Position numbers and translations under genes: made by a program. The notes under the pieces were generated by a model, which saw nothing but the letters and a program-made list of their open reading frames with translations, had not been told where the DNA came from and did no database searches. Shown here piece by piece: positions 996 to 39,801 of a stretch of 64,000 nt of DNA; the first letter of the stretch is position 1, and every line of letters starts with the position of its first letter. The stretch comes from Candidatus Pacearchaeota archaeon (GTDB taxonomy: Archaea > Nanobdellota > Nanobdellia > Pacearchaeales > GW2011-AR1), in the NCBI GenBank assembly GCA_041649295.1, contig JBAZNI010000002.1, forward strand, positions 141,356 through 205,355, given 5' to 3'.

Positions 996-1162
996 TTATT
1001 ATTAAACAAAGGGGATAAGCGGAGATTTATGATTTAAACATATAAACAGATTTTTAACTCTTAAAATTTACGAGTTTTTACCAAAAGGTATATATATAAT
1101 TTCTTTAAAATAATAGACTCTGATTTAGAGTTATATTGAATGAAAGGAGGTTAAAAAAAGAG

Positions 1163-8017: not shown

Positions 8018-8649
8018 TTTCTTTTTATATAACTAATCATTTCGTCTGCAGAAGGAACCATGCCTTCAAGTAAGATAACCTTCAAGTTTTCCTCATCAAG
8101 CGGTTTTTTATAATTTTTAATTAAACCTCCAATTTCCTTTATTTTTTTGGGATTATCAACAATCCTTAGCAAAAAGAAAATATCCCATAAATCTCTAATT
8201 TTAAATCTTTTCAAATAAGTATTTGACTTTTCAATTAAAAAAGATTCTGGGGTTAAGCTGTATATTAAAAAAACATTGCCATCAGACATTTCATAATCGC
8301 AAATTATGCCTGAAATTTTCTGAAAAGTTGCTTCTAATCTAACCGAAACTCTTTCAAGTTCTAATTCAGCATAAACACTATTTTCTGAAATCTTCTCTTT
8401 TTTTATATCAAATCCCGCCTTGTTTAAATTTTCAAATAAACTTCCAAGCTTTTTCTTATCATTAGGAAGATAAAAATCTAAATCTTCAGAGAATCTATTT
8501 CCATTATAACATCTCCAAATGGCTGTTCCGCCATGCAAAACTGCTTTATCAAAAACAGAATAAACTTCCTTTATAATTAAATCCTGAGCATAAGCTATCT
8601 TTCTATGAATTTCTCGTTTCAGTTTCGTTTGCAAAGGTATTTTTACCAT
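7996..8649 (-). CDS. AbiEii/AbiGii-family nucleotidyltransferase toxin (DUF1814-like)
   Basis: LHGGTAIWRCYNGNRFSEDLDFYL matches the conserved GGTA...R.S.DLDF core of the family. A TATA-like ATATATAAATA lies about 25 nt upstream of the ATG. Confidence 0.7.
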   Translation of the reverse strand: MVKIPLQTKLKREIHRKIAYAQDLIIKEVYSVFDKAVLHGGTAIWRCYNGNRFSEDLDFYLPNDKKKLGSLFENLNKAGFDIKKEKISENSVYAELELERVSVRLEATFQKISGIICDYEMSDGNVFLIYSLTPESFLIEKSNTYLKRFKIRDLWDIFFLLRIVDNPKKIKEIGGLIKNYKKPLDEENLKVILLEGMVPSADEMISYIKRKWENKYI

Positions 8650-10716: not shown

Positions 10717-11907
10717 CTAATAGGCAATACCCTTGCATTGACTTAACTTATTTACCAGTTTTCTTTCTACTATCTTCTCTTCTTTCCCTGTTTTCATATC
10801 TCTTAAGGTATATTTTTTGCTTTTAACTTCTTTTTCTCCAATAATTACTGCATATGGAATTTTTTTTGAATTTGCAAATTCCAGTGCTTTGCTGACTTTA
10901 TTATAAAAAATTGTGCAGGGGATATTATCTTTTCTAAGCCAGTTGGACAAACTGATTGCTTTTTCGTCCTGATTGATTGAAACAATCAAGCAAGTTTGTT
11001 TTTTTTGTTTTAAGTTTGCTAGGGGTTCTATCCTGTCTAATCCAAAAGAAATTCCTGTTGATTCAATACCCTCAATTAAATAAGTTCCGCCTCCGCAAAT
11101 TGTTTCTTTGATTTTTTCTGTTTTAACTTCAAAAACAGTTTTAGTATAATATGATAACCCCCTTACTAAACTTGGCTGAAAATTAACTTTGATATTATAG
11201 TACCTGCAGTATTTTTTCAGCTTTTTTATTTCAGAATAACTTTCATACTTTTCAAAAAATGCCTCTTTATTTCTTAATATATCTAAAATTTTTTCTGCTT
11301 TTAATTTTTTCAGGTTGTTTTTAACTTCGTTCTCTGGCAACTTGTCTAATTTATCTATTTCTCTCAATATCTGATTTTTATTTTTTTCAGGCATTTTTTC
11401 TTTTTCTAGTATTTCATTAAGCAATTTCCTGCTGTTAATATTGATTATTGTTTTAATCCCTATTTTTTTAAATATTTCATTTACAACAGCAAGAACTTCT
11501 GCTTCGTCTTTAACAGTGCTGCCGATTGTATCTATATCGCATTGGATAAACTGCCTGAATCTGTTTCCGGTTACAGGTTCATCTCTGAAAACAGGCCCAA
11601 TTTGATACCGTTTATATGGGAGTTTTTTTCCTTTTGCAATTCTTTTAAGCTGAAAAGTAAATTCATATCTTAGTGCTAATTTTCTACTGCCTTTGTCTTC
11701 TAATTTAAAAATATCACTTACAGCTTCATCACTAGAATTTTCACCTTTAACAAATTCTTCATACTCTACAACAGGTGTTTCTGCTGGTTCAAAATTATAC
11801 CTTTCAAAAACATCCATTAGAATTTTCATTATTTCTGCTCTTTTAGTTGCTTCTTCTCCGGTATAATCTTTAAATCCTTTTACTGACTCCATTTTTACAT
11901 TCCTCAT
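10717..11907 (-). CDS. hisS: histidyl-tRNA synthetase
   Basis: GFKDYTGEEA, RYQIGPVFRDEPVTGNRFRQFIQCDID (class II motif 2) and GGGTY. The ORF-track start at 12015 runs through tRNA-His, so the start was moved to ATG 11907 (alternative 11892). Confidence 0.9.
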   Translation of the reverse strand: MRNVKMESVKGFKDYTGEEATKRAEIMKILMDVFERYNFEPAETPVVEYEEFVKGENSSDEAVSDIFKLEDKGSRKLALRYEFTFQLKRIAKGKKLPYKRYQIGPVFRDEPVTGNRFRQFIQCDIDTIGSTVKDEAEVLAVVNEIFKKIGIKTIININSRKLLNEILEKEKMPEKNKNQILREIDKLDKLPENEVKNNLKKLKAEKILDILRNKEAFFEKYESYSEIKKLKKYCRYYNIKVNFQPSLVRGLSYYTKTVFEVKTEKIKETICGGGTYLIEGIESTGISFGLDRIEPLANLKQKKQTCLIVSINQDEKAISLSNWLRKDNIPCTIFYNKVSKALEFANSKKIPYAVIIGEKEVKSKKYTLRDMKTGKEEKIVERKLVNKLSQCKGIAY

Positions 11908-11914
11908 TTTTAAG

Positions 11915-11987
11915 GGCGGAAGGGGAGAGTCGAACTCCCGTTTCTCGGACCACAACCGAACGTCATAGCCGTTAGACCACAACCGCC
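11915..11987 (-). tRNA. tRNA-His (anticodon GTG) with encoded G-1
   Basis: Anticodon stem TTCGG/CCGAG, loop TTGTGGT, T-arm GGGAG-TTCGACT-CTCCC, G-1 opposite C73. The acceptor stem GCGGTTG/CTTCCGC has two U-U mismatches. Confidence 0.75.
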
Positions 11988-12473
11988 ATTGTAAGTTGCT
12001 AATGTTTTTTGGCATTCAATTTCTTGACAGCTAACTTGGCACTTAACCTCTTGAAATATTAACGGGCATACATTTAATTTAGATAAATTAGATATAAAAA
12101 CATTACTTAAAATGTTATTTGAAAAATTGCCAGGATTAAAGTTACAACTAAAAAAAGCCCTACTTTGCACAATGGGCACAACTCCGGATTTTAGTTGAGT
12201 CAAATTTCATAAGAATATTATAAATGAGACATTTATAAGGTTTTTGCTCAGCCCTTATTTGACTATTTCTAATACTTATAGATTAAGAGATGTATAGGCA
12301 GAGCTCTGCCATAATCTAATCACTTTTAATTTAATATGGGTTAAAAACTCATTAGAGGCACTCGGCAAGCCTCCAGAGAGAGCTGAGCCGATTAGTTCAG
12401 TTCTCTTAAGATTTTTCTGTATTTCTTAACATTGATATCTGATTTTAACTTCTTATCTTCTTTATTTACCATT

Positions 12474-12899
12474 TTAAATTTTTATGCTCTTCATATTTAA
12501 CTTTATCATACCATTTAAACCTTGACTTCTTCTTTTTCTTTTCTTCGTTTTATCTTTCAGTTTATTTTCGACTACTCTTCCATGTATTACTCTACCTAAC
12601 ACATCTCGTTTAACCTTTCTTTTAAATTTATCATGAATATCCGCATGATGATTTGGGCATAATATTTTTAGATTAGATATGCGATTATCATCATTTTTCA
12701 TATTTAAATGGTGAACTTGTAAATGCTTATTATGATTGCAACCTTTCCACTCACATTTATTCTTTGCTCTTTCCATAAGTTGACGCCTTTTCTTAGCAGA
12801 AACAGGTTCCCTAACGTGACCCCCAATCATTCTTATTGTATCTCGCTTCCTAGGTATAACCTTTTTTAAATTACCAATTTCAAATAAACTTTTTGGCAT
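12474..12899 (-). CDS. HNH endonuclease
   Basis: CEWKGCNHNKHLQVHHLNMKNDDNRISNLKILCPNHHADIH is a classic HNH motif with flanking Cys/His; basic tails. Confidence 0.8.
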   Translation of the reverse strand: MPKSLFEIGNLKKVIPRKRDTIRMIGGHVREPVSAKKRRQLMERAKNKCEWKGCNHNKHLQVHHLNMKNDDNRISNLKILCPNHHADIHDKFKRKVKRDVLGRVIHGRVVENKLKDKTKKRKRRSQGLNGMIKLNMKSIKI

Positions 12900-16001: not shown

Positions 16002-17880
16002 AAAGGGAGAGTTTGATAAAAAGGGGCAAGTTACTATATTTATTATTATGGCAGTTGTAGTTGTTGCACTTATAGTTGGTTTTTTTGTTTTTAGAGATAG
16101 TATTTTTCCAGTAGATAATAAATCTGGATTTGCAGAAGTTTATAGCTTTTTTGATTCATGCATAGAGCAAAAAACAAGGCAGGGGTTGTCGATATCAGGT
16201 TATCAGGCAGGATATATAGAACTCCCTGAATTTAAGCCTGGAAGCGAGTATGCACCATTTTCTTCGCAACTAGATTTTGTTGGAAGTGGTGTGCCTTACT
16301 GGTTTTATCTTTCAAGTAACGGGGTTGTAAAAGAACAGGTTCCTTCTATGTCGCAGATTGAATCTCAGTTAGAAAATTATCTTAGTAATAAATTAAAAGA
16401 ATGCGATTTTTCAGATTTTAATAAAAGAGGAATTTTTGTTGAAGTTTCTGAAATGAATCCTAGTGTAAGAGTTAAAGATACAGAAGTTGCTGTTTCCATT
16501 ACTGGGAATTTAGTTGTTTCAGATAATGAGACAAGCTCAGTTAGAAAACACCATAGTGTAAATGTAAAAAGCAAGTTTGGCAAGTTTTATAATTTAGCAA
16601 GAGAAATTTATTCTAAAGAAACAAGCGAGGCGTTTTTAGAAAATTATGCAAGAGATGTTATGTATAATTATGCTCCTGTTACAGGTACAGAGATTTCATG
16701 CTCGCCTTTGATGTGGAATCCGCAAGAGGTTACAGAAGATATAATAAATGGGCTGTCTGCAAATATCGGAGCTTTGAAATTAGATGGAAGTTATTATGAT
16801 TTGAAAAATAAAGAGAATAAATATTTTGTAGTTGATATTAAAACTGATGATAGTGTTTCATTTATGTATAATCCTGACTGGCCAACTAAAATTGAAGTAT
16901 GGCCTGTTGAATCTGGAACAATGATTGCAGAGCCTGTTGGACTAGAACAAGGTATGGGGATACTGGGATTTTGTTATGTGCCTTATCATTTTGTTTATGA
17001 CATTTATTTTCCCACCTTAATTCAGATATACGATGATGATGAAATTTTCCAATTTCCTGTTGCAGTTCTTATTGATAAGAGTAAGCCAAGAAATGAGTTG
17101 TCTTTAGGTGAAATTAGTGAAATAGAAGGAACAATAGATGAAATCTGCAATTATAAGGAAAGTAAAATAGATGTTTATACTTATGACGCAGAAATTAATC
17201 CTGTTGAAGCATCTATTGATTTCCAGTGCCTGAATCAGAAATGTTATATTGGAAAAACACAAGTTGCAAATGGCGGAATTTTATCAACAGACTTCCCGCA
17301 GTGCGTTAATGCAAAAATTATTGCAAGAGCTGATGGGTATTTAACAAGTGAAAGGATATTCTCAACTAATTTGCCCGGACAGGTTGATTTGTTAATGGAC
17401 AAGCTGTATGAATTAACATTAGATGTTGAAATTGGAGGAAGAGAAGCAGGGGATAATTTGGTAGTTGTTAATTTCCAGAGCACTTCAAATACATTTAGTG
17501 TTATTTATCCGGATCAAAATAAGGTTAAATTAGCTGAAGGAGATTATAATATTAGTGTTCAGGTGTTTGGAAAATCTTCGTTATTTATTCCTGAAAGTTC
17601 AACAAGGCAATGTGTAGAAGTTCCTGCTCCAGGTTTGTTGTCTGGAATTTTTGGAAGAACTACAGAAAATTGCTTTGACATTACTCTTCCAAGCCAGAAT
17701 ATTGATAATGCTCTTGTTGCAGGCGGAAGATTAAATGAGTATATACTTGAATCTGAACTAAAAGGAAAAACAAGGGCTGAGATTAATGTGCCTGCACTTC
17801 CAACTCCAAATAGTTTAGAGCAGTTGCAGAAAAATTATGAACTAGTTAATACAAATAGTTTAGGATGGAATATTAAATGA
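15991..17880 (+). CDS. large extracellular protein with class III (prepilin-type) signal peptide
   Basis: N-terminus MLNKKGEFDKKGQ-VTIFIIMAVVVVALIVGFFVF has a KGQ cleavage-type motif followed by a hydrophobic helix. ATGA overlap with the downstream giant gene. Confidence 0.6.
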   Translation: MLNKKGEFDKKGQVTIFIIMAVVVVALIVGFFVFRDSIFPVDNKSGFAEVYSFFDSCIEQKTRQGLSISGYQAGYIELPEFKPGSEYAPFSSQLDFVGSGVPYWFYLSSNGVVKEQVPSMSQIESQLENYLSNKLKECDFSDFNKRGIFVEVSEMNPSVRVKDTEVAVSITGNLVVSDNETSSVRKHHSVNVKSKFGKFYNLAREIYSKETSEAFLENYARDVMYNYAPVTGTEISCSPLMWNPQEVTEDIINGLSANIGALKLDGSYYDLKNKENKYFVVDIKTDDSVSFMYNPDWPTKIEVWPVESGTMIAEPVGLEQGMGILGFCYVPYHFVYDIYFPTLIQIYDDDEIFQFPVAVLIDKSKPRNELSLGEISEIEGTIDEICNYKESKIDVYTYDAEINPVEASIDFQCLNQKCYIGKTQVANGGILSTDFPQCVNAKIIARADGYLTSERIFSTNLPGQVDLLMDKLYELTLDVEIGGREAGDNLVVVNFQSTSNTFSVIYPDQNKVKLAEGDYNISVQVFGKSSLFIPESSTRQCVEVPAPGLLSGIFGRTTENCFDITLPSQNIDNALVAGGRLNEYILESELKGKTRAEINVPALPTPNSLEQLQKNYELVNTNSLGWNIK

Positions 17881-20800
17881 AAATTAAATTATTTTTAGGA
17901 ATTGCATTTTTATTAGTTTTGACTTTAACAATTGTATCTGGAGCATCTACTTTTGAAGGGGATAAATACAATAGTTTTGGAGGAAGCAGTTACACTTATT
18001 CATCTCCACAATATACTCAACCAGGATTTATGGGAAGTGATTCAGGTTATTACGGGCTTTATCCTGGATATGACAGAGAAACATGCCAGGCAAGAATGGA
18101 CTTTTTAATTCAAATTGCTCCTGGAGGCTGCACTCCTGCAGTTGTAAGAAGTGATTTATTAGCTGAGCAAGATGTTGCTGTTTTCTGTAAATTGCAGGCA
18201 TTACAGATAAACCCATTTATTGATACTACTACTATTAGAAATTTAGTTATTACACATAGAGGAAATCTTCCTGAAGGTGTTTCTGGTGTAGGTTATCACC
18301 GCCCTCAAATAGCGCTTACTAATGGATATAATGAACAAGGATTTTTTACTTTGGATAATATTGGGTATGCTGTTATTAAAATAAAACAGCAGCCAGATGA
18401 AAGAAAATTACTTGATTCTGTTTCTGGAAATTTAACTATTAAGGTTCAGTATGATGCGTCTAATACTTTTGGAATGGGAAAGAGCGAGTTAATTTCTCCT
18501 GCACTTTCACTAGAAGAGTGGCAGGCAGATTACCCTAAATATGGAATTATGAACGGGCAGGTTTATTTAAGAGTAGAATCAATAGAAGAAGAAAATGTAA
18601 GAGTTTCTGTTTATAGGGATTTTAATACTAAAATTGATACTATTAATCTTAAAAGAGGAGAAACTTCTGCTGAGAAATATCTTTCAGGATTTAATTGCGC
18701 AGCTGCTTATACAATAAGTGTAGGAGATAGTATTGCTCCAAGACCTAAAGCTAAAATTAATTTTCAAGGAGATGTATATGATGTTTATCAAGGAGAGAAA
18801 TTTGCAGATGGAGTTTGTATCGTTGATAAGATTTCGCCAGGAGTTTTAGGAACAGGAAGTGTTACAGGAAAATGCTATAATAAACAATTTGTACTAAGGT
18901 TAAATCAAAAACCAGTTCAATTAGAAGTTGATGGCACTACAAAAGAAATTGCAGTTGGAAGCAAGATAAAAGAAGGAGTTTATTTAGCAGGTTCTGGCAT
19001 TTATCTTGATACAAAATTTGTTTTATTATTTAAGGGAGCAAGCTATGATTCTGCTTCAAAAATAACTGCTCAGAAAAATGTTGATTTAATAAAAAAACAA
19101 GGAACTAGTGTAGAATTAACTGATAAAGATAAATATGTTGTTCTTGTAATTGATGAATTGGGTATTGGTGGAAGTCAGATTAATAGTGGAATTAAATTTG
19201 TAGAGTTAAAAGTTGCAGATAACTTTGTTTCTGATAATCCTGATTTTGAAAATTCTTTTTCTTCTGCAATAGGTTATTATGAAGAAGTTGAGGATAATTA
19301 TGGAGAATTTGAAACTATGGATAATGAAAATTATGAGATTTATGGGGTTGTTGCTTTAGATGAAGCGAGTTCATTTGCAAGCAACGTGTGGAAAAAAGAA
19401 ACTGCTGTAGAACTTGCGCAAAAATTAAAAGATAAATATAATGTTGTTTCAAGTGTTCTTTTAACAGAAACTAATTTTGATTATTCTGAATCTGCTTCTG
19501 TTATTGATGTAAATGATTTAAGTTATAGTATTTCTTTAGAATCTGTTGATGAACCTGAAGAAAAAGATTACGCTGTTTTAATAGAAATTGATGGAGCTCT
19601 TGCGCCTCCTGTTAAGAGAGAAGGCACTGTATTATTTGATAATATTAAAGTTGATTCTTTTACAAATAAAGAAGTTAAAATAACTGGAAAATGTGCTGAT
19701 AAAGATGTTGGCGAGACATTGAAATTGGCAGAGACAAAAGAAATATGCGGGAAGATAATTTATGTAAAACAAATTAATTATAATTCTTATGCTAAGATTT
19801 CTTTTGAACCAATAACAAGAAGATTAGGAAGTGAAGTTAATATTAGTTATTCAATTGGAATTGAAAAAAGAGCAATAGAGCTTAATCCTGAAAAAGCTGC
19901 AGAGAGAATTAAAAAATTAAATGAGAGCATAGCAAAATGGACAAATATTAACAAGAATTTAGGAGATGTTGTTAAGACAATGAAAACAGCGTGCTTTGCA
20001 ACAACAGCTGCTTTGCAAGTTAAGAATTTGTTTGGAAATTTAGGAGGAAAAGCAATTGCAAGAAATTCTGTAATGACTTCTGATAATGGATGGAACCAGA
20101 AATGCACTGATATAGTTGCTGAAAATCCAAGTATAAGTTTTGATAAATGTATAAAAGATAATGCAGATAAAATTGAAAGTGATGTTGAAGCAAGATACAA
20201 AGCAATACAAGAAGTAAATAATGCAATAAAAGAAATTGAATCTAATTTGCCTGCACAAGACGGAATTCTTAATACAAAAGTAATTGATACAGAAGCTTCT
20301 TTAGATAAAACAATTAAAAATATTCAGTCTGAGTTTGGGAATGATGCTACCTATAAAGATAAAGTTGCAATGCTTAATAAAGAAACATTAAGTTATGATG
20401 AAGCAAGAGAAATCTGGGTTAATTTGAAACTGCAGAGAGAAAGTGCAAGTGAGGTTTTAAAGTTATCTTCTAAAACTTCTTTAGAGAATACATTCAAAAG
20501 CATAGAAGCTATTCAAAAAAGAGAAAGTGTTAAAGATAAATTAGAAGCAGGAAGTGTGACTGATAATTTTGTTTTTGGAACAATAGAAACAGACAAAAGT
20601 GCAAAAGTAATTCCTTATTCTGGTTCTGTTGCTGAAAAAGATTTAGTTAGTGGGGGGGTTATAATATCAAAAGGAAAACCTGTTGGAGGAGTAACTGTTG
20701 GAGCTTCTAACTATATGGTTGAACTAGTTAATACTGGAGAGAATAAATATAAAGTTGCTAAAGGTGATGATAATACTGCTCATATTTATGAAATAGGAGA

Positions 20801-23603
20801 TAGTGGCAATATTATTTCAGCTATTAAAACAGATAACCCTGTTTATGATGAGATTATTGCTTTATCTTTTCAGAAGTTTGATTCTACTTCGTATAATAAC
20901 AAGTGGAGCAGTCCTAAGGTTAGGTATTATGAAACAGGGGTGTATAAGGGAATGCCTGCTGTTGTTCCTGTTGATGCTAGCAAAGGTTGGTATGCTGGGA
21001 CAAAACCTGTTCTTGCTGGTTTTGGAGATTCAACAACATTCCAGGAATCTGGAAGAGTTTCAAGTTTCTGGGTTTGTAATGTTGGTGAAAATGGAAGAGA
21101 GCAGTTTAATTCAGGATTAGGAGATGATGTTTGTGAGCAGTTTAATGTTGGAACAGGACAGTCATTCAGCACTTTCCCTGGACTTTCTGAAGCAGATGCA
21201 AGTTCTATTATTAAACAGGCAATGGCTGCACTAGAAGATGCTGCAAGAAATTATAAATCTGGACTTAAGAAAGTAAGTATAAGGGGTAAAACTTATGATG
21301 TAGATGATCCTGCTGTTGCTATTTCAGGAACAAGGTGTACTGATTTTATGTCTGCTAGAGATTGTCAGATAATGTTTAATGTTTGTGACCCGGTTATATG
21401 TCCAAGTTCAAGATGTAATTTAGGAGGAAGTTATTATGTAGATGATGTTGTTCAGAGTGGAATTGTTGGGAGTATTTTCTTATGCCTTCCAAATTATAAA
21501 GAAGGAATTTTCATACCTGTTTGCCTTACAGGAATTCATGCAGGAATTGAAAACTGGATTTCAATAATGAGTGCGTCGAGAGATTGTTTGCAAGAATCAA
21601 TTGATAGTGGAAGATATGTTGGAATTTGTGATGAGATAACTGCAATTTACAAATGCGAATTTTTCTGGAAGCAGTTTTCTCCTTTAATGAATAATATTAT
21701 TCCTAAGTTATTAGAAAGGTTATCTGGAAATAGTGTTAGAGGAGGAGGAGAATATCTTAGTGTTCAGTCTGCGTGGGATAATATGCAGAGTTCTATTAAT
21801 TATTTCAAGAATGAATATGGAGTTAATGCAATGAAAGCATTTAGAGCTCGTTCAACAGATGAAGTTGGAACAGAAGTTTGCAAGTCATTTATTTCATTTA
21901 AATATGCAAATAAATTTGAGACTTTAATAGAGCCTGACTCGCCTTCACAATATAGTGCTTGGTTTACAGAAATTCAGCAGACAACTGCAACAATACCTGC
22001 AATTTCTCAATATAAAGTTTATTATCATATTTATGCAGGAAATGATGCTGGAATTTACTATTCTGTTTATTTGAAAAACAGAGCTGGAGAGACATTTTAT
22101 GATAATACTGGTTATCTTAATGTTGTTGCTTCGGGATATATAAACAAGGGAGAGTATGTTGATATTGCAAAAGACTTTACAGCACCTTCTGGTTTCAAGG
22201 AATTATGCATTAGAGTTAATGGACAAGATGATTGTGGTTTTAAACAAGTATCTACTTCATTTGCACTTAATTATCTTAGAGATAAATATGTTCAGAGTGA
22301 AGCAACTGAGCAAATTACTAAAGAAGATGACTGCATATCTGGAACGCCGAATGCAGCAGCTGTATTATTAACTCCAAATATTCAGGCAGGTGTTGAAGAA
22401 AGTATTAATACTAATATTTATGAAAGAGGAATTATAAGAGTTTGTTCTACTGAAAATCCTGGTTCAACAACAGAACCTTCACGATGGGAAAAAGTAGGTT
22501 ATTGCACTGATAGTAAAGTTGGATGCTGGTTAGATACAGAATCTATTAGCAATGCAATAACTTCTGGAAATGTAGGTGTTAAAGATGCAACACTTGCAGA
22601 AATTCAGGCACTTGTAGATGAGCAGAAACAAGAGGAAAAAGCTGGAAGAGTCTATACTGATTTAGAAATAGCAAATGCACTAACAGAAGTTAGAAATAAA
22701 ATTCCTAATGTAAAAACAGAAGAAGAAGCTAGTGATTTAATTGTAGAATTAGAAACAATTGAAAATTCTCCAAGTATACTTGTGGAAAAACAAAGAGCTG
22801 AAATAATATTCCTTAAGGCAAAAACTAAAAGAGCACTTAGTGAGCAGCTTTGGAAAGAAGTTCAGGCAGGATTAGCTGTTAAAAGAGTTAATGATTATGC
22901 AGCGACTGGAAAAGAAAATCCAGAGGCTCCTGCGACGCCAGAGACACCCGAGACGCCTGAGACACCTGTTGAAACAGGGCTAAATGACGAAGTTCCAGAA
23001 GTTTTACAACCTTTATTCTTAGAAGTCTCTGAAAAAACAGGAGTTCCAGCAGCATTAATAGCAGCAATTTCAAATCAAGAGTGTAGTGATCTTTGGGGTG
23101 ATGCTCAAACAGATCCAACAAAAATAATTGATTTAATAGATAATGATAAGATTCCTGCAAGCAGAGATATTTGTAATTACAATAATAAATACAATGTATT
23201 TGGCCCGATGCAATTTAGGATTGGTAAAGCGTATTTGAAAGAACATGGTATGGAAATTTATCAAACTACTCCTGATGGAAAACCAAATCCCAATGTTGGA
23301 ACATGGGAAGGTTATGTATCTAACACAGCAGAATTATTAGAAATTGATGAAGAAGCACTCAGCCCATTAATTATTCGACATTCAGTATATGCTGCTGCTA
23401 TAAAATTAAAAAAAGATGCGGGAAGTCCTACTGATTGGACAGAAGCAGAAATTAAAGAAGCTGCGAAAGGATATTTTGGGGCTTGTACAGCAGAACAGAC
23501 TATTGGCGGGAAAAAAGTTACAGTTAATTATTGCGATGATATTATTTCTAAATATAATAAGTATAAGGTATTAAAAGAATCTACTCCTTTTCTTATTGCT
23601 TAA
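17877..23603 (+). CDS. giant secreted protein (1908 aa) with C-terminal lytic-transglycosylase (SLT/GH23)-like domain
   Basis: Sec signal MKIKLFLGIAFLLVLTLTIVSGAS, a Cys-rich central region, a PEAPATPETPETPETP linker, then VPAALIAAISNQECS...GPMQF resembling the SLT E-S...G-L-M-Q core. Confidence 0.7.
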   Translation: MKIKLFLGIAFLLVLTLTIVSGASTFEGDKYNSFGGSSYTYSSPQYTQPGFMGSDSGYYGLYPGYDRETCQARMDFLIQIAPGGCTPAVVRSDLLAEQDVAVFCKLQALQINPFIDTTTIRNLVITHRGNLPEGVSGVGYHRPQIALTNGYNEQGFFTLDNIGYAVIKIKQQPDERKLLDSVSGNLTIKVQYDASNTFGMGKSELISPALSLEEWQADYPKYGIMNGQVYLRVESIEEENVRVSVYRDFNTKIDTINLKRGETSAEKYLSGFNCAAAYTISVGDSIAPRPKAKINFQGDVYDVYQGEKFADGVCIVDKISPGVLGTGSVTGKCYNKQFVLRLNQKPVQLEVDGTTKEIAVGSKIKEGVYLAGSGIYLDTKFVLLFKGASYDSASKITAQKNVDLIKKQGTSVELTDKDKYVVLVIDELGIGGSQINSGIKFVELKVADNFVSDNPDFENSFSSAIGYYEEVEDNYGEFETMDNENYEIYGVVALDEASSFASNVWKKETAVELAQKLKDKYNVVSSVLLTETNFDYSESASVIDVNDLSYSISLESVDEPEEKDYAVLIEIDGALAPPVKREGTVLFDNIKVDSFTNKEVKITGKCADKDVGETLKLAETKEICGKIIYVKQINYNSYAKISFEPITRRLGSEVNISYSIGIEKRAIELNPEKAAERIKKLNESIAKWTNINKNLGDVVKTMKTACFATTAALQVKNLFGNLGGKAIARNSVMTSDNGWNQKCTDIVAENPSISFDKCIKDNADKIESDVEARYKAIQEVNNAIKEIESNLPAQDGILNTKVIDTEASLDKTIKNIQSEFGNDATYKDKVAMLNKETLSYDEAREIWVNLKLQRESASEVLKLSSKTSLENTFKSIEAIQKRESVKDKLEAGSVTDNFVFGTIETDKSAKVIPYSGSVAEKDLVSGGVIISKGKPVGGVTVGASNYMVELVNTGENKYKVAKGDDNTAHIYEIGDSGNIISAIKTDNPVYDEIIALSFQKFDSTSYNNKWSSPKVRYYETGVYKGMPAVVPVDASKGWYAGTKPVLAGFGDSTTFQESGRVSSFWVCNVGENGREQFNSGLGDDVCEQFNVGTGQSFSTFPGLSEADASSIIKQAMAALEDAARNYKSGLKKVSIRGKTYDVDDPAVAISGTRCTDFMSARDCQIMFNVCDPVICPSSRCNLGGSYYVDDVVQSGIVGSIFLCLPNYKEGIFIPVCLTGIHAGIENWISIMSASRDCLQESIDSGRYVGICDEITAIYKCEFFWKQFSPLMNNIIPKLLERLSGNSVRGGGEYLSVQSAWDNMQSSINYFKNEYGVNAMKAFRARSTDEVGTEVCKSFISFKYANKFETLIEPDSPSQYSAWFTEIQQTTATIPAISQYKVYYHIYAGNDAGIYYSVYLKNRAGETFYDNTGYLNVVASGYINKGEYVDIAKDFTAPSGFKELCIRVNGQDDCGFKQVSTSFALNYLRDKYVQSEATEQITKEDDCISGTPNAAAVLLTPNIQAGVEESINTNIYERGIIRVCSTENPGSTTEPSRWEKVGYCTDSKVGCWLDTESISNAITSGNVGVKDATLAEIQALVDEQKQEEKAGRVYTDLEIANALTEVRNKIPNVKTEEEASDLIVELETIENSPSILVEKQRAEIIFLKAKTKRALSEQLWKEVQAGLAVKRVNDYAATGKENPEAPATPETPETPETPVETGLNDEVPEVLQPLFLEVSEKTGVPAALIAAISNQECSDLWGDAQTDPTKIIDLIDNDKIPASRDICNYNNKYNVFGPMQFRIGKAYLKEHGMEIYQTTPDGKPNPNVGTWEGYVSNTAELLEIDEEALSPLIIRHSVYAAAIKLKKDAGSPTDWTEAEIKEAAKGYFGACTAEQTIGGKKVTVNYCDDIISKYNKYKVLKESTPFLIA

Positions 23604-23627
23604 TCAAACCTGTTCGAATCCAAATTA

Positions 23628-23774
23628 TGCGAGGGACAGGATTCGAACCTGCGTAGGCACTAAGCCAGCAGATTTCTCAAGTTTCTCTTACTCCTATAAA
23701 GGAAGGTGTGTGAGAGGAAACCTTGGTTTCCTTCATCTTGAGTCTGCTTCGTTTGACCACTCCGACACCCTCGC
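23628..23774 (-). tRNA. tRNA-Leu (anticodon CAA) with 63-nt intron after position 37
   Basis: Acceptor GCGAGGG/CCCTCGC, anticodon stem GCAGA/TCTGC, loop CTCAAG|intron|A, long variable arm TGGCTTAGTGCCTAC, T-arm GCAGG-TTCGAAT-CCTGT. Intron at 23674..23736. Confidence 0.85.
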
Positions 23775-24647: not shown

Positions 24648-25583
24648 TTATTTTTTTACTTTTGAGCCTTTTTTCTCTATTTCAGAAATCTTCATTTTTT
24701 CATCTAAGCCAAGTTTTTCAAACAGCTCTTTGTATCTGTTCCTTATTGTAACCTCTGTAATCCCTGCTACATCTGCAACTTCTCTCTGTGTTTTTTTCTC
24801 GTCGTTAAGGAGAGCTGCTACATATAGTGCTGCAGCTGCAATTCCTGCAGGGCCTCTTCCAGATGTTAATTCTTCTTCATCTGCTTTTTTTAGTATTTTA
24901 AGAGCGTGCTGTTGTGTTTTAGGTGATAAATGGAGTATACTTGAGAATCTTGAAATGTAGTCATTTGGAGCAGAAGCAGCAACTTTAATTGGCATTCTTC
25001 TTATTATGAATCTGTATGTTCTTCCAATTTCTTTTCTTTCTATATCTGAAGCGTGTGCAATTTCATCTAATGTTCTTGGAATGTTGTAAGAACGGCATGC
25101 TGCGTAAATACAAGCAGCTATAACAGATTCCATGCTTCTTCCTCTTACAAATCCTCTTTGCAGAACATAATTGTAAATTCTTGCAGCCTCATCCCCCACG
25201 ACATTTGGAAGATTTAAGAAAGCTGAAACTCTTCTAAGCTCTGCCATTGCTAATCTTAAATTTCTTTCAATACTTGTAGAAACTCTTTCCTGCCATTTTT
25301 TTAATCTTAAGAATTTTCTTGTTTGTTTTGTATCTAGTTTGTAAATATCAGAAATCTCTCCTACATTTGTTGTTAATCCTTTGTCAAATTTCTGCATTGA
25401 CATTGGAGCTCCTCCTCTTCCTTTTTTCTCTGATTTGTCAAATTTTCCAGATAAATCAATTCCAGTATCAACCATTTTTTCTTCAATAAGAAGTCCACAA
25501 TCATTGCAAATCAACTCTCCTTTTTCGTCGTCATAAGTAAGGTTAATGCTGTTACATTCAGGACATCGCTTTATATTTGGCAT
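24648..25583 (-). CDS. tfb: transcription initiation factor B (TFIIB homologue)
   Basis: N-terminal Zn-ribbon CPECNS...CNDCG and two cyclin-like repeats (RGRSMESVIAACIYAACR, GRGPAGIAAAALYVAA). Confidence 0.95.
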   Translation of the reverse strand: MPNIKRCPECNSINLTYDDEKGELICNDCGLLIEEKMVDTGIDLSGKFDKSEKKGRGGAPMSMQKFDKGLTTNVGEISDIYKLDTKQTRKFLRLKKWQERVSTSIERNLRLAMAELRRVSAFLNLPNVVGDEAARIYNYVLQRGFVRGRSMESVIAACIYAACRSYNIPRTLDEIAHASDIERKEIGRTYRFIIRRMPIKVAASAPNDYISRFSSILHLSPKTQQHALKILKKADEEELTSGRGPAGIAAAALYVAALLNDEKKTQREVADVAGITEVTIRNRYKELFEKLGLDEKMKISEIEKKGSKVKK

Positions 25584-25621
25584 TTTAAGTTAAGTAGATA
25601 GTTTTATAAAGGTAATATAGA

Positions 25622-25638
25622 AAGGTTTAAAAAGGTTT
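25622..25638 (-). promoter_or_regulatory. BRE/TATA-like promoter box upstream of tfb
   Basis: AGGTTTAAAAAGGTTTG is identical to the 17-mer upstream of rps15 and lies about 40-55 nt upstream of the tfb ATG at 25583. Confidence 0.45.
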
Positions 25639-25710
25639 GGATTACGATGGATTTGTGTAATGAGTAAATTAGAACAAAAAGAATTTAAATCCTAGAACCA
25701 GTTTAAATAT

Positions 25711-26004
25711 ATGAAAAGAGGATTTGACTTCTGGGATTTTCTTATTTTTATTGGGGTAATTATAATTCTTGGATGGGCTTTATTAAAAACATTAGGAATT
25801 ATTAATTCTCCAATTTGGTTGGAAATGATGCCTTATTATGGGGCAGGATTAGCAGGGCTTGGGGGCGCATATAAGCTTGGGAAAATAATGAATGGTGTTG
25901 AAAGATTACTTAGAATAGAAGAGAGATTTAATAAACTAGAACATACCCATAATATGTGCATAGATGGAAAGTTAAATGGGAGTCCATACAAAGGCAAACA
26001 TTAA
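25711..26004 (+). CDS. small membrane protein
   Basis: 97 aa with two hydrophobic helices (FWDFLIFIGVIIILGWALL; MPYYGAGLAGLGGAY). Confidence 0.45.
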   Translation: MKRGFDFWDFLIFIGVIIILGWALLKTLGIINSPIWLEMMPYYGAGLAGLGGAYKLGKIMNGVERLLRIEERFNKLEHTHNMCIDGKLNGSPYKGKH

Positions 26005-26011
26005 TCTATTT

Positions 26012-26380
26012 TTAATCAATTAGAATACCTTGAACAGAACCTTCTTGACTTGGGCGGTTTGTTATTCTTACTTTTCTATTGTCTTCTGTTTCAATAATTG
26101 CTCCTTTTGTAAGAACATTTTGTCTTGCTAAGAAACGATTTGAAGGTGTTTCAATAACATTTTTTATAGAATATACTTTTGTTTTGTGTGTTTTTGGATC
26201 AGTGACATTTACTTTATTTGCTCCCAGTAAAACTGATTTTTCATTTCCCCCTCTTGTTCTTATTGTTTTTCTTTTAGTTTCTTTTAGTTTCACGATTCTT
26301 GGCTGTCTGACTAATTCATACTTTTTCTTTTTTTTGCTCCTATGATATTTCCCACCGGTTGTTTTTCTTCCATAATCCAT
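26012..26380 (-). CDS. rps8e: 30S ribosomal protein eS8 (S8e)
   Basis: GRKTTGGKYHRSKKKKKYE...TRGGNEK...VIETPSNRFLARQNVLTKGAII is typical of S8e. Confidence 0.9.
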   Translation of the reverse strand: MDYGRKTTGGKYHRSKKKKKYELVRQPRIVKLKETKRKTIRTRGGNEKSVLLGANKVNVTDPKTHKTKVYSIKNVIETPSNRFLARQNVLTKGAIIETEDNRKVRITNRPSQEGSVQGILID

Positions 26381-26514
26381 ATTGATTTATCAAAAAGTTG
26401 ATTTAAATATCTTTCTAGCAAGAAATTTATCAGATAATACGAGATTAATTTGCTGTTTTTATAAAAATTTTTATACATACAAAGATTTAAAAACTTTTGA
26501 ATTTAGATGAGAGT

Positions 26515-26766
26515 ATGGCAAATGGAATTGAAAGACCTCTCGACCTTTTAAACAATTCGAAGGGAAAAGAAATTTTGGTCCAATTGAAAGGAGAAAAGCA
26601 GTTCGTAGGAACTTTGCTTGCATTTGATATCCACATAAATATTGTGCTGGATAATGCAAAAGAAATGCAGGACGGCGAATTAAAAAGAAGTTATGGACTA
26701 ACATTTTTAAGAGGAGATACAATTGTGTTTATATCTCCAGCTTCGCGTGTTGGGAAGTCTGATTAG
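26515..26766 (+). CDS. Sm-like (LSm) RNA-binding protein
   Basis: RPLDLLNNSKGKEILVQLKGEKQFVGTLLAFDIHINIVLDNAKE...FLRGDTIVFIS shows Sm1 and Sm2 motifs. Start moved to ATG 26515; the track start is a TTG. Confidence 0.85.
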   Translation: MANGIERPLDLLNNSKGKEILVQLKGEKQFVGTLLAFDIHINIVLDNAKEMQDGELKRSYGLTFLRGDTIVFISPASRVGKSD

Positions 26767-26866
26767 TTGTCCTTTTTTTTAATTTATGGATGCCTGTTTC
26801 TAGGTGTCTAATAGATAGTGAGAACTTTATTGGAAATGTTTTTAAACAAGCTATTTATTTAATGAA

Positions 26867-27262
26867 ATGAAAAAAAAACAGAGAATATCAGTTTTGTTTG
26901 TGGATGATTCATATATTGCTGTCAATTCATGGAGGGGGGTATTAGAAAGCAGGGGTTATGATGCGATTTCCTATTCTAACTTTGAGGATGCAACAAACGC
27001 TATTGAAGATGGTTTGGAATTTGATATTGCTATTGTTGACAGAGGTGAGGAAAGAGCAGATGGTTCTCTTAGTTGTTCGTCTGGAGATGCTCTGATTCAA
27101 TTAATTGGCAATAAGTTCCCTGGCAAACCAGTTATTCCGATTTCAGGATATGCTACTGATTGTCCTTATACAAACATTCCTGTTCTTGTAAAACCATTTT
27201 TTGTAGATGAGTTTGAAAGAACAATAGCTCAAATTGTTTTAAATACTGGGTTAGGAAGATAA
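26867..27262 (+). CDS. stand-alone response-regulator receiver domain protein
   Basis: A CheY-like pattern: VLFVDDS, IAIVDR and PVIPISGY. No kinase gene is nearby. Confidence 0.6.
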   Translation: MKKKQRISVLFVDDSYIAVNSWRGVLESRGYDAISYSNFEDATNAIEDGLEFDIAIVDRGEERADGSLSCSSGDALIQLIGNKFPGKPVIPISGYATDCPYTNIPVLVKPFFVDEFERTIAQIVLNTGLGR

Positions 27263-27329
27263 GTCTTATATAGAACAAGATTTCTTTTGCTTTCATTAAA
27301 TTTATTAATATTGTTTTCTTGTAAATAAT

Positions 27330-28232
27330 ATGGCAGATAAAATTAAAGTTGTTTTTTTAGGAAGTGGAAGTGCTGTGCCGACAGCTGAAAGAAATCACCC
27401 AGCTGTGCTTTTAAAATACAAAAATGAGAATATTTTATTTGATTGCGGAGAAGGAACTCAAAGGCAGTTTAGGAAAGCAAAAATAAGTATTTGTAAATTA
27501 ACAAAATTATTCATAACACATTGGCATGGAGACCATGTTTTGGGAATACCAGGATTATTGCAAACACTTGCTTTCAATGATTATAACAGGAAACTTCAGA
27601 TTTACGGGCCAAAAGGAACTAAAAAATATCTTGATGAAATATTTAAAATTTTTATGCCTGTGAAAAAGATTTATTTTGAAGTTAGAGAATTGGATGGAGG
27701 AACTGCTTTTGAAACAATTGATTTTAAAATTTTATCTCATACCGTAAGACATAATACTCCTTGTTTAGCTTATAGTTTTATTGAAAAAGGCAATTTAAGA
27801 ATTGACAAGAAGAAATTAGATAAATTGAACATTGGAAATTCTCCGTTAATTAAAAAGTTAAAAGAAGAAAAAGATGTGGTTATTAAGGGCAAGAAATTAA
27901 AATTTAAGGATTTAACTTATCGACAGATGGAGAAAAAAATTGTCATTATGTCAGATACAAAGTATTTTAACGGCATAGAAAAAATTCCTGAAGATGCAGA
28001 TTTGCTTGTTATAGAATCAACTTATTTAGATGAAGAAGAACTTGCAAATGATAATTATCATTTAACTGTTTTACAAAGTGCTAATATTGCAAAAAAAGCA
28101 AAAGTAAAAAAATTGATTTTAACTCATTTAAGCCAGAAGCATCAAAAAAATAAAGATGAATTTATTAAAATAGCTAAGAAGCATTTTAAAAATTCAGATG
28201 TTGCTGAGGATTTAATGAGTGTAGAGGTATAA
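27330..28232 (+). CDS. rnz: ribonuclease Z (tRNA 3' endonuclease)
   Basis: Metallo-beta-lactamase signature ITHWHGDHVLGIPGLL, the N-terminus VVFLGSGSAVPT, and a length of 300 aa. Confidence 0.9.
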   Translation: MADKIKVVFLGSGSAVPTAERNHPAVLLKYKNENILFDCGEGTQRQFRKAKISICKLTKLFITHWHGDHVLGIPGLLQTLAFNDYNRKLQIYGPKGTKKYLDEIFKIFMPVKKIYFEVRELDGGTAFETIDFKILSHTVRHNTPCLAYSFIEKGNLRIDKKKLDKLNIGNSPLIKKLKEEKDVVIKGKKLKFKDLTYRQMEKKIVIMSDTKYFNGIEKIPEDADLLVIESTYLDEEELANDNYHLTVLQSANIAKKAKVKKLILTHLSQKHQKNKDEFIKIAKKHFKNSDVAEDLMSVEV

Positions 28233-28233
28233 A

Positions 28234-28437
28234 ATGGCAGGCAATAATAGTTATGATCCTCTTCGTAGTTTTGTTTTTCAAGTAGTTATTGGCGAAAAGG
28301 AGTATGTTAGAAGGGACAATAATCCGGATGTTGCTGATAGAAATATAGTGGAATTCCACAGTAAAACTGCCCCAATTGTCACTAATACTTCTAGGGGGGA
28401 AAGTTTAACCGGAGCTTATGAGAATTATAGTGTTTAA
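28234..28437 (+). CDS. hypothetical small protein (67 aa)
   Basis: Starts 1 nt after the rnz stop. No motif recognised. Its 3' end participates in a 29-nt tandem duplication. Confidence 0.3.
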   Translation: MAGNNSYDPLRSFVFQVVIGEKEYVRRDNNPDVADRNIVEFHSKTAPIVTNTSRGESLTGAYENYSV

Positions 28438-28500
28438 CCAGAGCTTATGAGGTTTAGCAATTCAAAATGTTTATATATGATTTTTTGGTTGTATTTTTGA

Positions 28501-28634
28501 GCTCCCGTAGCTCAGCCTGGATAGAGCGATAGCCTTCTAGTGATGTGGGAAAACCTACGGTTTTCCTAACACTACCTTTCCCTTAAGGTAGAGAAGAAAG
28601 CTATAGGTCGCAGGTTCGAATCCTGTCGGGAGCA
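28501..28634 (+). tRNA. tRNA-Arg (anticodon TCT) with 59-nt intron after position 37
   Basis: Acceptor GCTCCCG/CGGGAGC, D-arm GCTC-AGCCTGGATA-GAGC, anticodon stem ATAGC/GCTAT, loop CTTCTA|intron 28540..28598|A, T-arm GCAGG-TTCGAAT-CCTGT. Confidence 0.85.
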
Positions 28635-28790
28635 TTAACGGATTCGAAGTGCTCATGAAGCAAAGCTTCCTGGCAACTTATATTCTGTGAATCTAAGTAA
28701 TCCTGTCGGGAGCATTAACGGATTCGAAGTGCTCATGAAGCAAAGCTTCCTGGCAACTTATATTCTGCGAATCTAAGTAATCTTGCAGGA
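28619..28790 (+). repeat. two tandem 80-nt units (tRNA-Arg 3' end plus 64-nt module) and a degenerate third start
   Basis: Units 28619..28698 and 28699..28778 differ at one position (CTGTGAATC versus CTGCGAATC). Each begins with AATCCTGTCGGGAGCA; a third AATCTTGCAGGA start at 28779 is degenerate. Confidence 0.85.
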
Positions 28791-28906
28791 TATCTAGTTT
28801 ATCAATTATAAAAGTAGAAAGAATTAATTACAGAAATTAAACTTCTTTATAGATTATTAAGTAAAGGATAATAGTAATTTAAAAAGGAAGTATTTTTTTA
28901 TTTTTT

Positions 28907-38935: not shown

Positions 38936-39124
38936 TTATCCTGCTTTTTTATTTCTTTTAATCCTCGATATATAGCCTGCTATTTTATTTCTTGTACCTA
39001 TATCTGGCAGGTTATATATTTTTAGCAGTTCTTTGTTTTTTTCAAAATTCACACTAAATTCAGGAGTTCTTGCAACCAATGTTTTTGCAGTCTTCTTTAT
39101 TGCTTTTGATTTTATCCGGCCCAT
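38936..39124 (-). CDS. rps17e: 30S ribosomal protein eS17 (S17e)
   Basis: MGRIKSKAIKKTAKTLV...NKIAGYISRIKR is typical of S17e; 62 aa. Confidence 0.9.
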   Translation of the reverse strand: MGRIKSKAIKKTAKTLVARTPEFSVNFEKNKELLKIYNLPDIGTRNKIAGYISRIKRNKKAG

Positions 39125-39222
39125 TATGTTTTAATCTCTTGTTCAGCATATTTAAATTTTTCCATATTCTTAAATTTTTAAATTTTGCGAAGTTTTATAT
39201 ATACTGGCTTATTCTCCTAATT

Positions 39223-39801
39223 ATGGCTAAAAAAACTGGAAAATTAAAAGATAAATCCTGCAAAAGTTCGAAAAATCATACAAAGGAAAAGATAATTGCA
39301 AGGTTTTCTGGAGACTCAGTTATAAGTTCTTCTAAGGGTGCAAGGGATTTATACAGCAGAAGTTTTTTTGGAGAGTATATTGATGGCAAAATTCATTATT
39401 CTTTTGTAGAAGCGTTATACCTTATTGGCAAAAATAAAATTGAAGTTTATGATAATACTAAAAAGATTAGTTTTAACCTCTTACTGGATAAGTGCAAGAA
39501 AGTTGATAAAAAAATTCAGATTAAGTATATTGTTTATAAAGATTTGAGAGATAGAGGATATCTTTTGAAAACTGCGCTTAAGTTCGGGGCGGACTTTAGG
39601 GTTTATGATAAGGGGGCTTATCCTGGCAAGGAGCATGCTAAATGGATACTTTACCCTGTTAATGAGAATTCTGAATTAACCTGGCACGAGTTTTCTGCTA
39701 AAAATCGTGTGGCTCATAGCACAAAAAAGAACCTTTTAATAGCAATTGTTGATAGTGAAGGAAGCATTATTTATTATGAAATTGCTTGGATTAGGCCTTA
39801 A
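39223..39801 (+). CDS. endA: tRNA-splicing endonuclease
   Basis: SFVEALYL, VYKDLRDRGYLLKTALKFGADFRVYDKG and HAKWIL match the EndA catalytic domain. Start moved from 39070 to ATG 39223. Confidence 0.85.
   Translation: MAKKTGKLKDKSCKSSKNHTKEKIIARFSGDSVISSSKGARDLYSRSFFGEYIDGKIHYSFVEALYLIGKNKIEVYDNTKKISFNLLLDKCKKVDKKIQIKYIVYKDLRDRGYLLKTALKFGADFRVYDKGAYPGKEHAKWILYPVNENSELTWHEFSAKNRVAHSTKKNLLIAIVDSEGSIIYYEIAWIRP

Follow-up and report, generated by a model that had tools for sequence, protein, structure and literature searches.

In archaea and bacteria, mobile DNA lands chiefly at tRNA genes and, to our knowledge, the elements described so far as users of these sites are kilobase-sized and bring their own integrase or Cas1-type enzyme. 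REP and IS200-type elements have no terminal inverted repeats (TIRs), rely on DNA hairpins, do not duplicate their target, and show no linkage to tRNA genes. MITEs, the miniature transposable elements with inverted repeats, are defined by their TIRs and short duplications (PMC3184786). Casposons produce a target duplication of 14–15 bp at tRNA 3' ends, require the T-loop region for targeting, build tandem arrays in which nothing but the shared duplication stands between neighbouring elements, and are found in either orientation (PMC5137440, PMC4779613). Archaeal tRNA genes may also be disrupted by non-canonical introns or split into fragments; T-loop insertions, related inserts in different tRNA genes, and fragments lying beside intact genes have all been reported (PMC3293823, PMC4090602). 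The subject of the present work is a non-coding module of about 50 nt, here named X, which is found behind two tRNA genes, tRNA-Arg(TCT) and tRNA-Gln(TTG), in a 64,000-nt stretch of DNA from a Candidatus Pacearchaeota archaeon with a tiny genome (contig JBAZNI010000002.1, positions 141,356 to 205,355; hereafter the window). X has the look of a miniature insertion element, not described before, that is specific for the ends of tRNA genes. The reading favoured here, with a probability of roughly 45%, is that X is a non-autonomous insertion module targeted to the T-arm/3' ends of tRNA genes, and that its insertion duplicates the tRNA end while the gene is left intact. Literature searches on tRNA-end duplications, miniature att-flanked elements, repeats of DPANN archaea and Pacearchaeota, and T-loop insertions led to casposons, integrase elements, reviews on MITEs and REP elements, and work on disrupted tRNA genes; the arrangement described below was not among their results.

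Organization of the tRNA-Arg and tRNA-Gln Loci

The tRNA-Arg(TCT) gene of the window (28501..28634, plus strand; Rfam RF00005, 56.5 bits) is intact and carries an intron of ~61 nt at the canonical position 37/38. Its last 16 nt, AATCCTGTCGGGAGCA, reaching from T-loop A58 to the discriminator, are denoted R1 (28619..28634). On the same strand they are followed by a 64-nt module (copy 1, 28635..28698), an exact 16-nt copy of R1 (R2, 28699..28714), a second copy of the module (28715..28778), and a degenerate distal repeat, R3' (28779..28794), of the sequence AATCTTGCAGGATATC, which matches the repeat at 9 of 16 positions and is itself near-palindromic (AATCTTG/CAGGATA). The sole difference between the two Arg units is T28689 in copy 1 versus C28769 in copy 2. 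The first-pass annotation of this DNA had described tandem 80-nt units with one substitution and a degenerate third start, and this description is confirmed by direct reading and alignment as well as by Tandem Repeats Finder (period 80, 2.0 copies, 98% matches, score 321).

The same layout is found on the plus strand behind the intact tRNA-Gln(TTG) gene (839..911; Rfam 61.4 bits). Direct reading and alignment place its repeated end, R1(Gln), of the sequence AATCCTGGCGGGGCTA, at 896..911; a 66-nt version of the module (912..977) and an exact copy of the tRNA-Gln 3' end (R2(Gln), 978..993, 16/16) come next, and a T-run, TTTTATTATT, directly follows (994..1003). The trailer strings read either TTTTATTATT or TAGTTTATCAATT. 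At both loci the duplicated end starts at T-loop position 58 and belongs to the cognate tRNA, as had been annotated, and the figure of about 85% identity between the Arg and Gln modules holds overall. Their homology stops exactly at ATTCGAA and AATCCTG, two strings common to both T arms. At none of the other six tRNA genes of the window is there a downstream copy of the gene's own 3' end, and extension of the contig beyond the window yielded neither an extra tRNA nor an extra copy of X. Two conserved strings of the module occur three times each in the window, against 0.00–0.01 occurrences expected by chance.

Assembly artefact is ruled out as the source of the tandem arrangement, since contigs of an independent run, SRR8542065 (Logan), reproduce it at both the Arg and the Gln loci. 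These contigs include the unit-2-specific C and the complete Gln unit; at tRNA-Arg they end 31 nt into the repeat and restart 30 nt before the unit-2-specific base, which are exactly the breakpoints forced on a k=31 graph by a tandem repeat. In one contig of the same run (L025, 1..20) the acceptor strand of tRNA-Gln ends in CCTGGCAGGGCT, with A67 forming a Watson-Crick pair with U6, while the window (890..911) and a second Logan contig (L030, 1..30) read CCTGGCGGGGCTA, with G67 in a wobble pair. Such a difference may stem from heterogeneity of the population at the insertion site, where it could mark an empty-site allele, or from an error caused by low coverage at the tip of a contig.

The Core X and Its Distribution among Relatives

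The 64-nt module had been proposed as the conserved unit, but the comparisons place conservation in a core of about 50 nt, X, located at 28649..28698 (copy 1; nhmmer E=1e-16) and 28729..28778 (copy 2, one substitution relative to copy 1) behind tRNA-Arg and at 927..977 (copy 3, 51 nt; nhmmer E=9e-15) behind tRNA-Gln, in each case on the plus strand. By alignment, copy 3 is 88–90% identical to the Arg copies. The first 14–15 nt of the module (TTAACGGATTCGAA at Arg, TTGCCAGTATTCGAA at Gln) differ between the loci and form a locus-specific inverted copy of the T arm, discussed below as the spacer.

Related genomes were reached via the conserved TFIIB-S8e-LSm-RNase Z neighbourhood, and 20 tRNA genes from five Pacearchaeota genomes were surveyed. 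A repeat-insert-repeat structure is present at 5 of the 20, in three genomes: at tRNA-Arg and tRNA-Gln of the window, at tRNA-Leu(CAA) (two units) and tRNA-Arg(TCT) of an 856-kb contig (L037/L028) whose RNase Z is 58% identical to that of the window, and at tRNA-Ala(GGC) of L035. Behind tRNA-Leu(CAA) of L037 the order is repeat-module-repeat-module-repeat, the repeat being CTAGCACCCACA and the two modules measuring 92 nt each with ~10% mutual divergence; tRNA-Arg(TCT) of the same contig is followed by an insert of ~180 nt and then by a second copy of the tRNA 3' end. The single unit at tRNA-Ala(GGC) has the repeat CGGCAGGTCCA and a 78-nt insert. An insert lies directly 5' of all five downstream tRNA-end copies, and an uninterrupted spare copy was not seen among the surveyed tRNA genes. 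The orthologous tRNA-Arg genes of L026 and L035 are empty, while that of L033 has an inverted T-loop copy only. The first-pass annotation had called for a look at empty sites in relatives; such sites were thus found at the tRNA-Arg genes of two genomes, but an empty-site allele of the same species was not.

On the tRNA strand, the inserts behind tRNA-Arg of L037 (12290..12376) and tRNA-Ala of L035 (13860..13891) open with a hairpin of identical loop, GAATGAAATGAA, and different stems (CTATT/AATAG versus ATCAAC/GTTGAT). Judged from the sequences, these hairpins may represent a second conserved module type at tRNA 3' ends.

X itself recurs in the tRNA-Leu inserts of L037. When all modules were aligned locally on both strands, positions 17–62 of the window module agreed with the reverse-complemented tRNA-Leu module of L037 in 37 of 45 ungapped positions (score 58; shuffle mean 15.5). 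The identity of X to these inserts amounts to 80–82% (nhmmer E=6e-14 and 2e-10). The core lies on the tRNA strand in the window and runs opposite to it in L037, its orientation being constant inside each genome. When 149 kb of Pacearchaeota DNA are searched with a profile of the five copies, these five places and no others are matched (E from 1e-16 to 2e-10), and in the same 149 kb the palindrome TTAWATTC-N3-4-GAATYTAA is restricted to these modules and the L037 tRNA-Arg insert. The cross-strand alignment and the profile matches make X a family common to very distant genomes and present in both orientations. The claim that the module is multi-copy, non-coding, and tied to tRNA 3' ends is supported by these data. 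As to the proposed search of related genomes, all places matched by the X profile in the 149 kb are tRNA-associated; the pattern used for a wider scan is blind to X of the L037 type. That scan, covering 185,579 species-representative genomes, JGI metagenome contigs, and IMG/VR, employed the degenerate pattern TTCGAAGNNNNCATGANNNNNNNCTTCCTGG, made from the window copies only, and returned 22 matches, all of them chance occurrences in high-GC coding DNA; because the pattern misses the L037-type X, the scans do not show that X is absent elsewhere. A further search string for X is CTGGYAANTTAWATTCNNNGAATYTAA.

Hairpins Conserved in X

In DNA folding, every X copy forms an identical pair of adjacent hairpins on both strands, with z from −2.5 to −4.8. 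In copy 1 hairpin 1 spans ~28650..28675 and hairpin 2 spans 28676..28698 (z=−3.5 on the plus strand and −4.8 on the minus strand). The covariation check suggested by the first-pass annotation was run on an alignment of five X sequences from two lineages only: 96% of the cells of the 20 proposed pairs are paired, against 22–44% in slid controls, and compensatory double changes occur at five pairs (G-C to A-T, G-C to T-A, C-G to G-C or A-T). One-sided changes of the G-U type were not found among the 20 pairs of this alignment. Of the helices proposed earlier, GAAG...CTTC is present with covariation in the form GAAGC/GCTTC, whereas TGCT/AGCA is not kept in the relative. The supposed outer helix ATTCG...CGAAT joins a flank to one arm of a hairpin that had been overlooked, CTTATATTC-TGT-GAATCTAAG. 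A single RNA fold for the whole 64-nt module was considered and rejected, as the Arg and Gln copies differ in their minimum-energy folds and have only the two hairpins of X in common. Since compensation is exclusively of the Watson-Crick type and X occurs in both orientations, the pattern of substitutions points to a structure that matters as DNA, or as RNA regardless of strand.

These hairpins could be maintained by the host for their own sake, either as a pre-tRNA trailer acting in termination or 3' processing or as a protein-binding DNA palindrome, the repeats then being incidental. Besides the compensatory changes, such a role would find support in the RNase Z gene directly upstream of tRNA-Arg and in the absence of a T-run between tRNA and X (at tRNA-Gln the T-run comes after R2), from which it follows that X is probably co-transcribed. 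A function of this kind is nonetheless very unlikely as the explanation of the loci: it leaves the tRNA-end copy unexplained, most tRNA genes, including the orthologous tRNA-Arg in relatives, do without X, the RNA transcribed in L037 would be the complement, and no G-U pairs are used. Nor is there an Rfam family: a search of Rfam 15 at gathering and permissive thresholds gave no family for the module, the tRNA being the sole match and the sub-threshold hits having E-values of 0.14–9.

An alternative 3' exon had also been suggested. In this reading the downstream tRNA-end copy would serve as the exon, and R1 and the module would be removed by the splicing endonuclease EndA as a T-loop intron. 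A strict bulge-helix-bulge (BHB)-like motif can indeed be drawn between the T arm of tRNA-Arg and hairpin 2 of X (28618/28682; h=6, h'=2), and an EndA gene is located at 39070..39801. At tRNA-Gln, with a bulge of 4 nt, the motif is lost, so that no BHB is conserved between the two loci; the number of such motifs is within the range of shuffled sequences, and the inserts of relatives, inspected by eye, lack one. The product ligated at the Arg motif would not be a tRNA, and the upstream gene is already complete, which makes splicing hardly credible here. The BHB control scan did recover the canonical intron motif of tRNA-Arg, atagcCTTC(TAG)t...aGAAG(AAA)gctat.

The motif of the canonical intron has a very weak inner helix (h'=1). 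Introns of ~60 nt at the canonical position are present in two tRNA genes of the window (28501..28634 and 23628..23774), both of which are missed by ARAGORN without its intron option; for tRNA-Arg(TCT), missed by default, the intron option gives the erroneous label SeC(tca).

Spacers and Inverted Copies of the T Arm

At both window loci the tRNA and X are separated by a spacer that reads as the local T loop and T-stem 3' strand in reverse complement. At tRNA-Arg the spacer TTAACGGATTCGAA (28635..28648, with a second copy at 28715..28728, plus strand) contains GGATTCGAA, in which the T loop and the beginning of the T-stem 3' strand appear reverse-complemented (inverted-repeat test p=0.007; DNA hairpin with the T arm z=−2.9). 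At tRNA-Gln the spacer TTGCCAGTATTCGAA occupies 912..926 on the plus strand, and its part at 914..926, GCCAGTATTCGAA, is the reverse complement of TTCGAATCCTGGC of the tRNA at 12 of 13 positions (p=0 of 300 shuffles; hairpin z=−3.7). The spacer of the L037 tRNA-Leu modules gives an inverted match of 20/23 over the entire T arm. In the DNA fold, spacer and tRNA together make a hairpin of 9–13 bp around the acceptor 3' strand. X always stands between a T-loop-like TTCGAA on the tRNA-proximal side and the spare tRNA end, whatever its orientation; another way to see each unit is therefore as an incomplete copy of the T arm plus acceptor strand of the tRNA, with a break close to the 3' side of the T loop. 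Descent from a decayed copy of a whole tRNA, considered because unit lengths roughly track tRNA lengths, was rejected, the T-arm-like pieces being inverted or out of order.

Inverted T-loop copies are also found alone. One of them, GGATTCGAAC on the tRNA strand (23611..23621, p=0), lies 6 nt past the 3' end of tRNA-Leu(CAA) of the window (23628..23774, minus strand), a locus with no X and no tRNA-end repeat. Another, behind tRNA-Arg of L033 (11311..11325), tracks that gene's own variant loop, TTCAAAT versus ATTTGAA. The window tRNAs that have X or an inverted T-loop copy are only the three whose T arm reads GGTTCGAATCC. Such lone copies could be footprints, half-sites, or trailer hairpins.

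A phage tRNA-Tyr gene with an encoded CCA (L044, 2582..2622; an IMG/VR contig of 167 kb and 52% G+C) is followed by AATTTAACGGATTCGAA, which contains the 14-mer TTAACGGATTCGAA of the Arg spacer. The match is probably due to chance, because 9 of those bases were fixed by the search pattern. In L033, a LAGLIDADG-like open reading frame (ORF) with weak Pfam matches (11748..12547) ends in or beside an intron-containing tRNA gene, called Lys(ttt) by ARAGORN, and may be the remnant of a homing endonuclease at a tRNA locus. The tRNA-Leu gene of the window is approached by a convergent ORF of 1908 aa (17877..23603, plus strand), with 24 nt between the stop codon and the tRNA 3' end; positional counterparts in relatives have 2100–2600 aa and SLT or lysozyme-like domains.

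The direct-inverted-direct layout, in which an inverted T arm is followed by a direct copy, raises the question of whether any dedicated enzyme is needed. Template switching in repair or replication at the palindromic T arm would produce it, with X as a filler copied between tRNA loci by microhomology. The lone inverted copies behind tRNA-Leu of the window and tRNA-Arg of L033, the latter matching its own variant loop, agree with this explanation, as do the borders of the Arg/Gln homology at strings common to both T arms and the lack of both TIRs in the modules and an enzyme gene in the window. Random filler, on the other hand, would not persist at 80% conservation with compensatory changes between very distant genomes and in both orientations; anchors of 7 nt are poor substrates for repeated ectopic copying, and the same architecture is seen at five tRNA genes in three genomes. 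Template switching as the whole explanation is accordingly rated as rather improbable.

Proposed Insertion at tRNA Ends

The proposal of a non-autonomous insertion module is supported by the presence of one core behind two different tRNA genes, each time with that tRNA's own 3' end. Further support comes from the homologous X in distant L037, where it is turned round relative to the tRNA, from the hairpins kept by compensatory changes, from the recurrence of repeat-insert-repeat at 5 of the 20 tRNA genes beside empty tRNA-Arg orthologues, from the T arm common to the three window tRNAs concerned, and from the casposon precedent at tRNA 3' ends. That X moves, that its insertion and the duplication are coupled, and which kind of enzyme acts are inferred; mobility, as suggested by the first-pass annotation, is still the best reading. 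An enzyme acting in trans would insert X, now or recently, into tRNA genes with the T arm AGGTTCGAATCCT, on the 3' side of their T-loop region, leaving the last 12–18 nt of the gene on either side of the insert. The enzyme might cut in a staggered fashion, within the T loop and immediately beyond the discriminator, with subsequent fill-in, or the route might be conservative recombination with a donor bearing the same tRNA end. The upstream copy of the end would complete an intact tRNA, and the downstream copy would be a dead fragment. The inverted T-arm copy at the proximal junction could be fold-back filler or a second half-site for the enzyme. Tandem arrays would arise when the proximal site, still intact, received a further insert, or when repeats recombined unequally, and the most distal repeat would then decay, as R3' may have done; its degenerate state is in keeping with arrays that grow next to the tRNA.

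Several observations weigh against this proposal. No empty-site allele of the same species was found, and neither integrase nor transposase nor Cas1 was found among the ~50 window ORFs searched against Pfam and the 10 searched against PHROGs, which for the first two agrees with what had been annotated. The repeat length varies among genomes, from 16–18 nt at the window loci to 11–15 nt in L037 and L035, the right-hand boundary being blurred by T-rich trailers. TIRs are absent from the six modules tested: when the 5' 30 nt of each module were compared with the reverse complement of its own 3' 30 nt, the best matches had 5–11 nt (p from 0.04 to 0.55 versus shuffles). X flips between genomes while the T-arm-like spacer stays on the tRNA side, and the whole module is therefore not one rigid element; the constant orientation of X within each genome is a further difficulty. 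As the Arg/Gln homology ends at the shared ATTCGAA and AATCCTG, homology-guided copying could also explain the spread, and the covariation is drawn from five sequences of two lineages. The first-pass annotation had spoken of an att or a target-site duplication. The cognate exact repeats stand and may be either, TIRs being absent and the homology between the loci ending at shared T-arm strings.

The att alternative has its own form, in which larger integrative elements (tyrosine-integrase viruses or plasmids) took the tRNA 3' end for their att and left the units behind as scars. X would then be a remnant of the element arms after deletion or a piece left by excision via an internal att copy, and would be similar to a minimal cis-mobilisable element. 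A tRNA 3' end that recurs as an exact direct repeat starting in the T loop is the classic signature of integrase insertion (PMC3293823, PMC9897764), tandem accretion at one tRNA is known for such elements, and beside R1 the inverted copy of the T arm creates a site with inverted arms of 9–13 nt around a spacer of 9–10 nt. Deletions would have to be identical every time, however, to leave one and the same 50-nt core, identically bounded, behind two tRNAs and in two genomes. Recombination at att fixes the orientation, whereas X is inverted relative to the tRNA in L037; a switch from Gln to Arg by crossover at AATCCTG would leave a dead tRNA of chimeric sequence, which is not observed. The window encodes no integrase, and viral contigs scanned for both tRNA-end strings, for a tRNA with an inverted T loop, and for the X palindrome gave only chance matches in coding regions, unrelated palindromes, or nothing; the matches to both att strings were of the coding type. 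Origin as such a scar is thus judged unlikely.

A more specific form of the insertion module reading would make X a new miniature mobile element of DPANN archaea that recognises the tRNA T arm as DNA, in either orientation, and duplicates the 3' end by a ruler-like staggered cut without TIRs, such as a Cas1-family or other integrase might make. The lone inverted T-loop copies behind other tRNAs would then be excision footprints. It is put forward tentatively, as a somewhat unlikely possibility.

Genomic Setting

The Candidatus Pacearchaeota (DPANN) genome that supplied the window has a G+C content of ~31%; homologues of its RNase Z bear the names Pacearchaeota or Nanoarchaeota in their sources. 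The X-bearing loci are embedded in an ordinary core-genome neighbourhood. Among the neighbours are genes for S15, RIO kinase, SRP54, FtsY, aminoacyl-tRNA synthetases, TFIIB, S8e, an LSm protein, RNase Z, a NUDIX protein, EndA, pyruvate:ferredoxin oxidoreductase, and TFIIE. The order TFIIB-S8e-LSm-RNase Z with tRNA-Arg(TCT) nearby (24648..28634) is kept across Pacearchaeota contigs. In L026, L033, and L035 the tRNA gene comes right after RNase Z and shares its strand, and in L037 it is found 1.5 kb away on the opposite strand; a gene for a tRNA 3'-processing enzyme is thus usually found directly upstream of the tRNA that bears the array in the window.

Two other features of the region are of a different kind. 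An AbiEii-type nucleotidyltransferase toxin is encoded at 7996..8649 on the minus strand (Pfam E=9e-14), with a small ORF upstream (7436..8017), likely a toxin-antitoxin pair amid housekeeping genes. About 2.2–3.2 kb past the right end of the window, beside a ribosomal protein operon, a reverse transcriptase of 343 aa is encoded (L041, 4494..5525). It resembles the group II intron reverse transcriptase below the cut-off (146 bits versus 300) and may be of the diversity-generating type; diversity-generating reverse transcriptases are common in DPANN. Retro-mobility of X by means of this enzyme was considered, and no link to the tRNA modules was found.

Comparison with Known Systems

If the insertion reading is right, X is a miniature user of the tRNA target, in genomes where other mobile DNA is almost absent. 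The working model that comes closest is the casposon, but membership in that group fails. Like casposons, X sits at the 3'-distal part of a tRNA gene whose end is duplicated, forms tandem arrays sharing the duplication, and occurs in both orientations. Casposons are, however, kilobase-sized, with TIRs, Cas1, and PolB, whereas the insert described here has 50–64 nt and is 100 times smaller, shows no TIRs, and has no Cas1 in the window; moreover, its duplication begins inside the T loop, while that of casposons overlaps only the last 5 bp of the tRNA.

The att duplications of integrase elements and the minimal cis-mobilisable elements share with X the exact 3'-end repeat, the regenerated intact tRNA, the displaced fragment, and tandem accretion. 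They are kilobases long and fixed in orientation, in contrast to an 80-nt unit, far below the usual size of integrating DNA, with a core that is inverted in L037, serves two tRNA ends, and has no integrase in the window. In being short, non-coding, multi-copy, and hairpin-forming, X recalls MITEs, REP, and IS200/IS605-derived elements, all of which depend on an enzyme in trans. Neither the TIRs nor the short duplications of the MITE type are found at X. Conserved DNA hairpins without TIRs bring it nearer to REP and IS200/IS605 elements, from which it differs by the tRNA-end repeat and the tRNA linkage. In a common orientation, the left flank of X reads CGAA in the window and GCTA in L037, so that no target tetranucleotide is shared.

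With the disrupted tRNA genes of archaea X has in common a tRNA-derived insertion in or by the T loop, related inserts at different tRNAs, and a fragment beside an intact gene; it differs by the lack of a conserved BHB and by an insert located within the spare 3' fragment and not within the functional gene. Insertion of X, if it takes place as proposed, would continuously make spare tRNA 3' fragments and T-loop insertions, the raw material for non-canonical T-loop introns and split tRNA genes, and would offer a concrete route from insertion to tRNA fragments and T-loop interruptions that bears on the evolution of disrupted archaeal tRNAs. Even if repair alone were behind the duplication, the T arm would emerge as a fragile palindrome with an influence on the flanks of tRNA genes in these reduced genomes. 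What would distinguish X among these systems is a 50-nt hairpin module inside a duplicated T arm, common to distant Pacearchaeota, which would multiply in tandem while the tRNA is kept intact.

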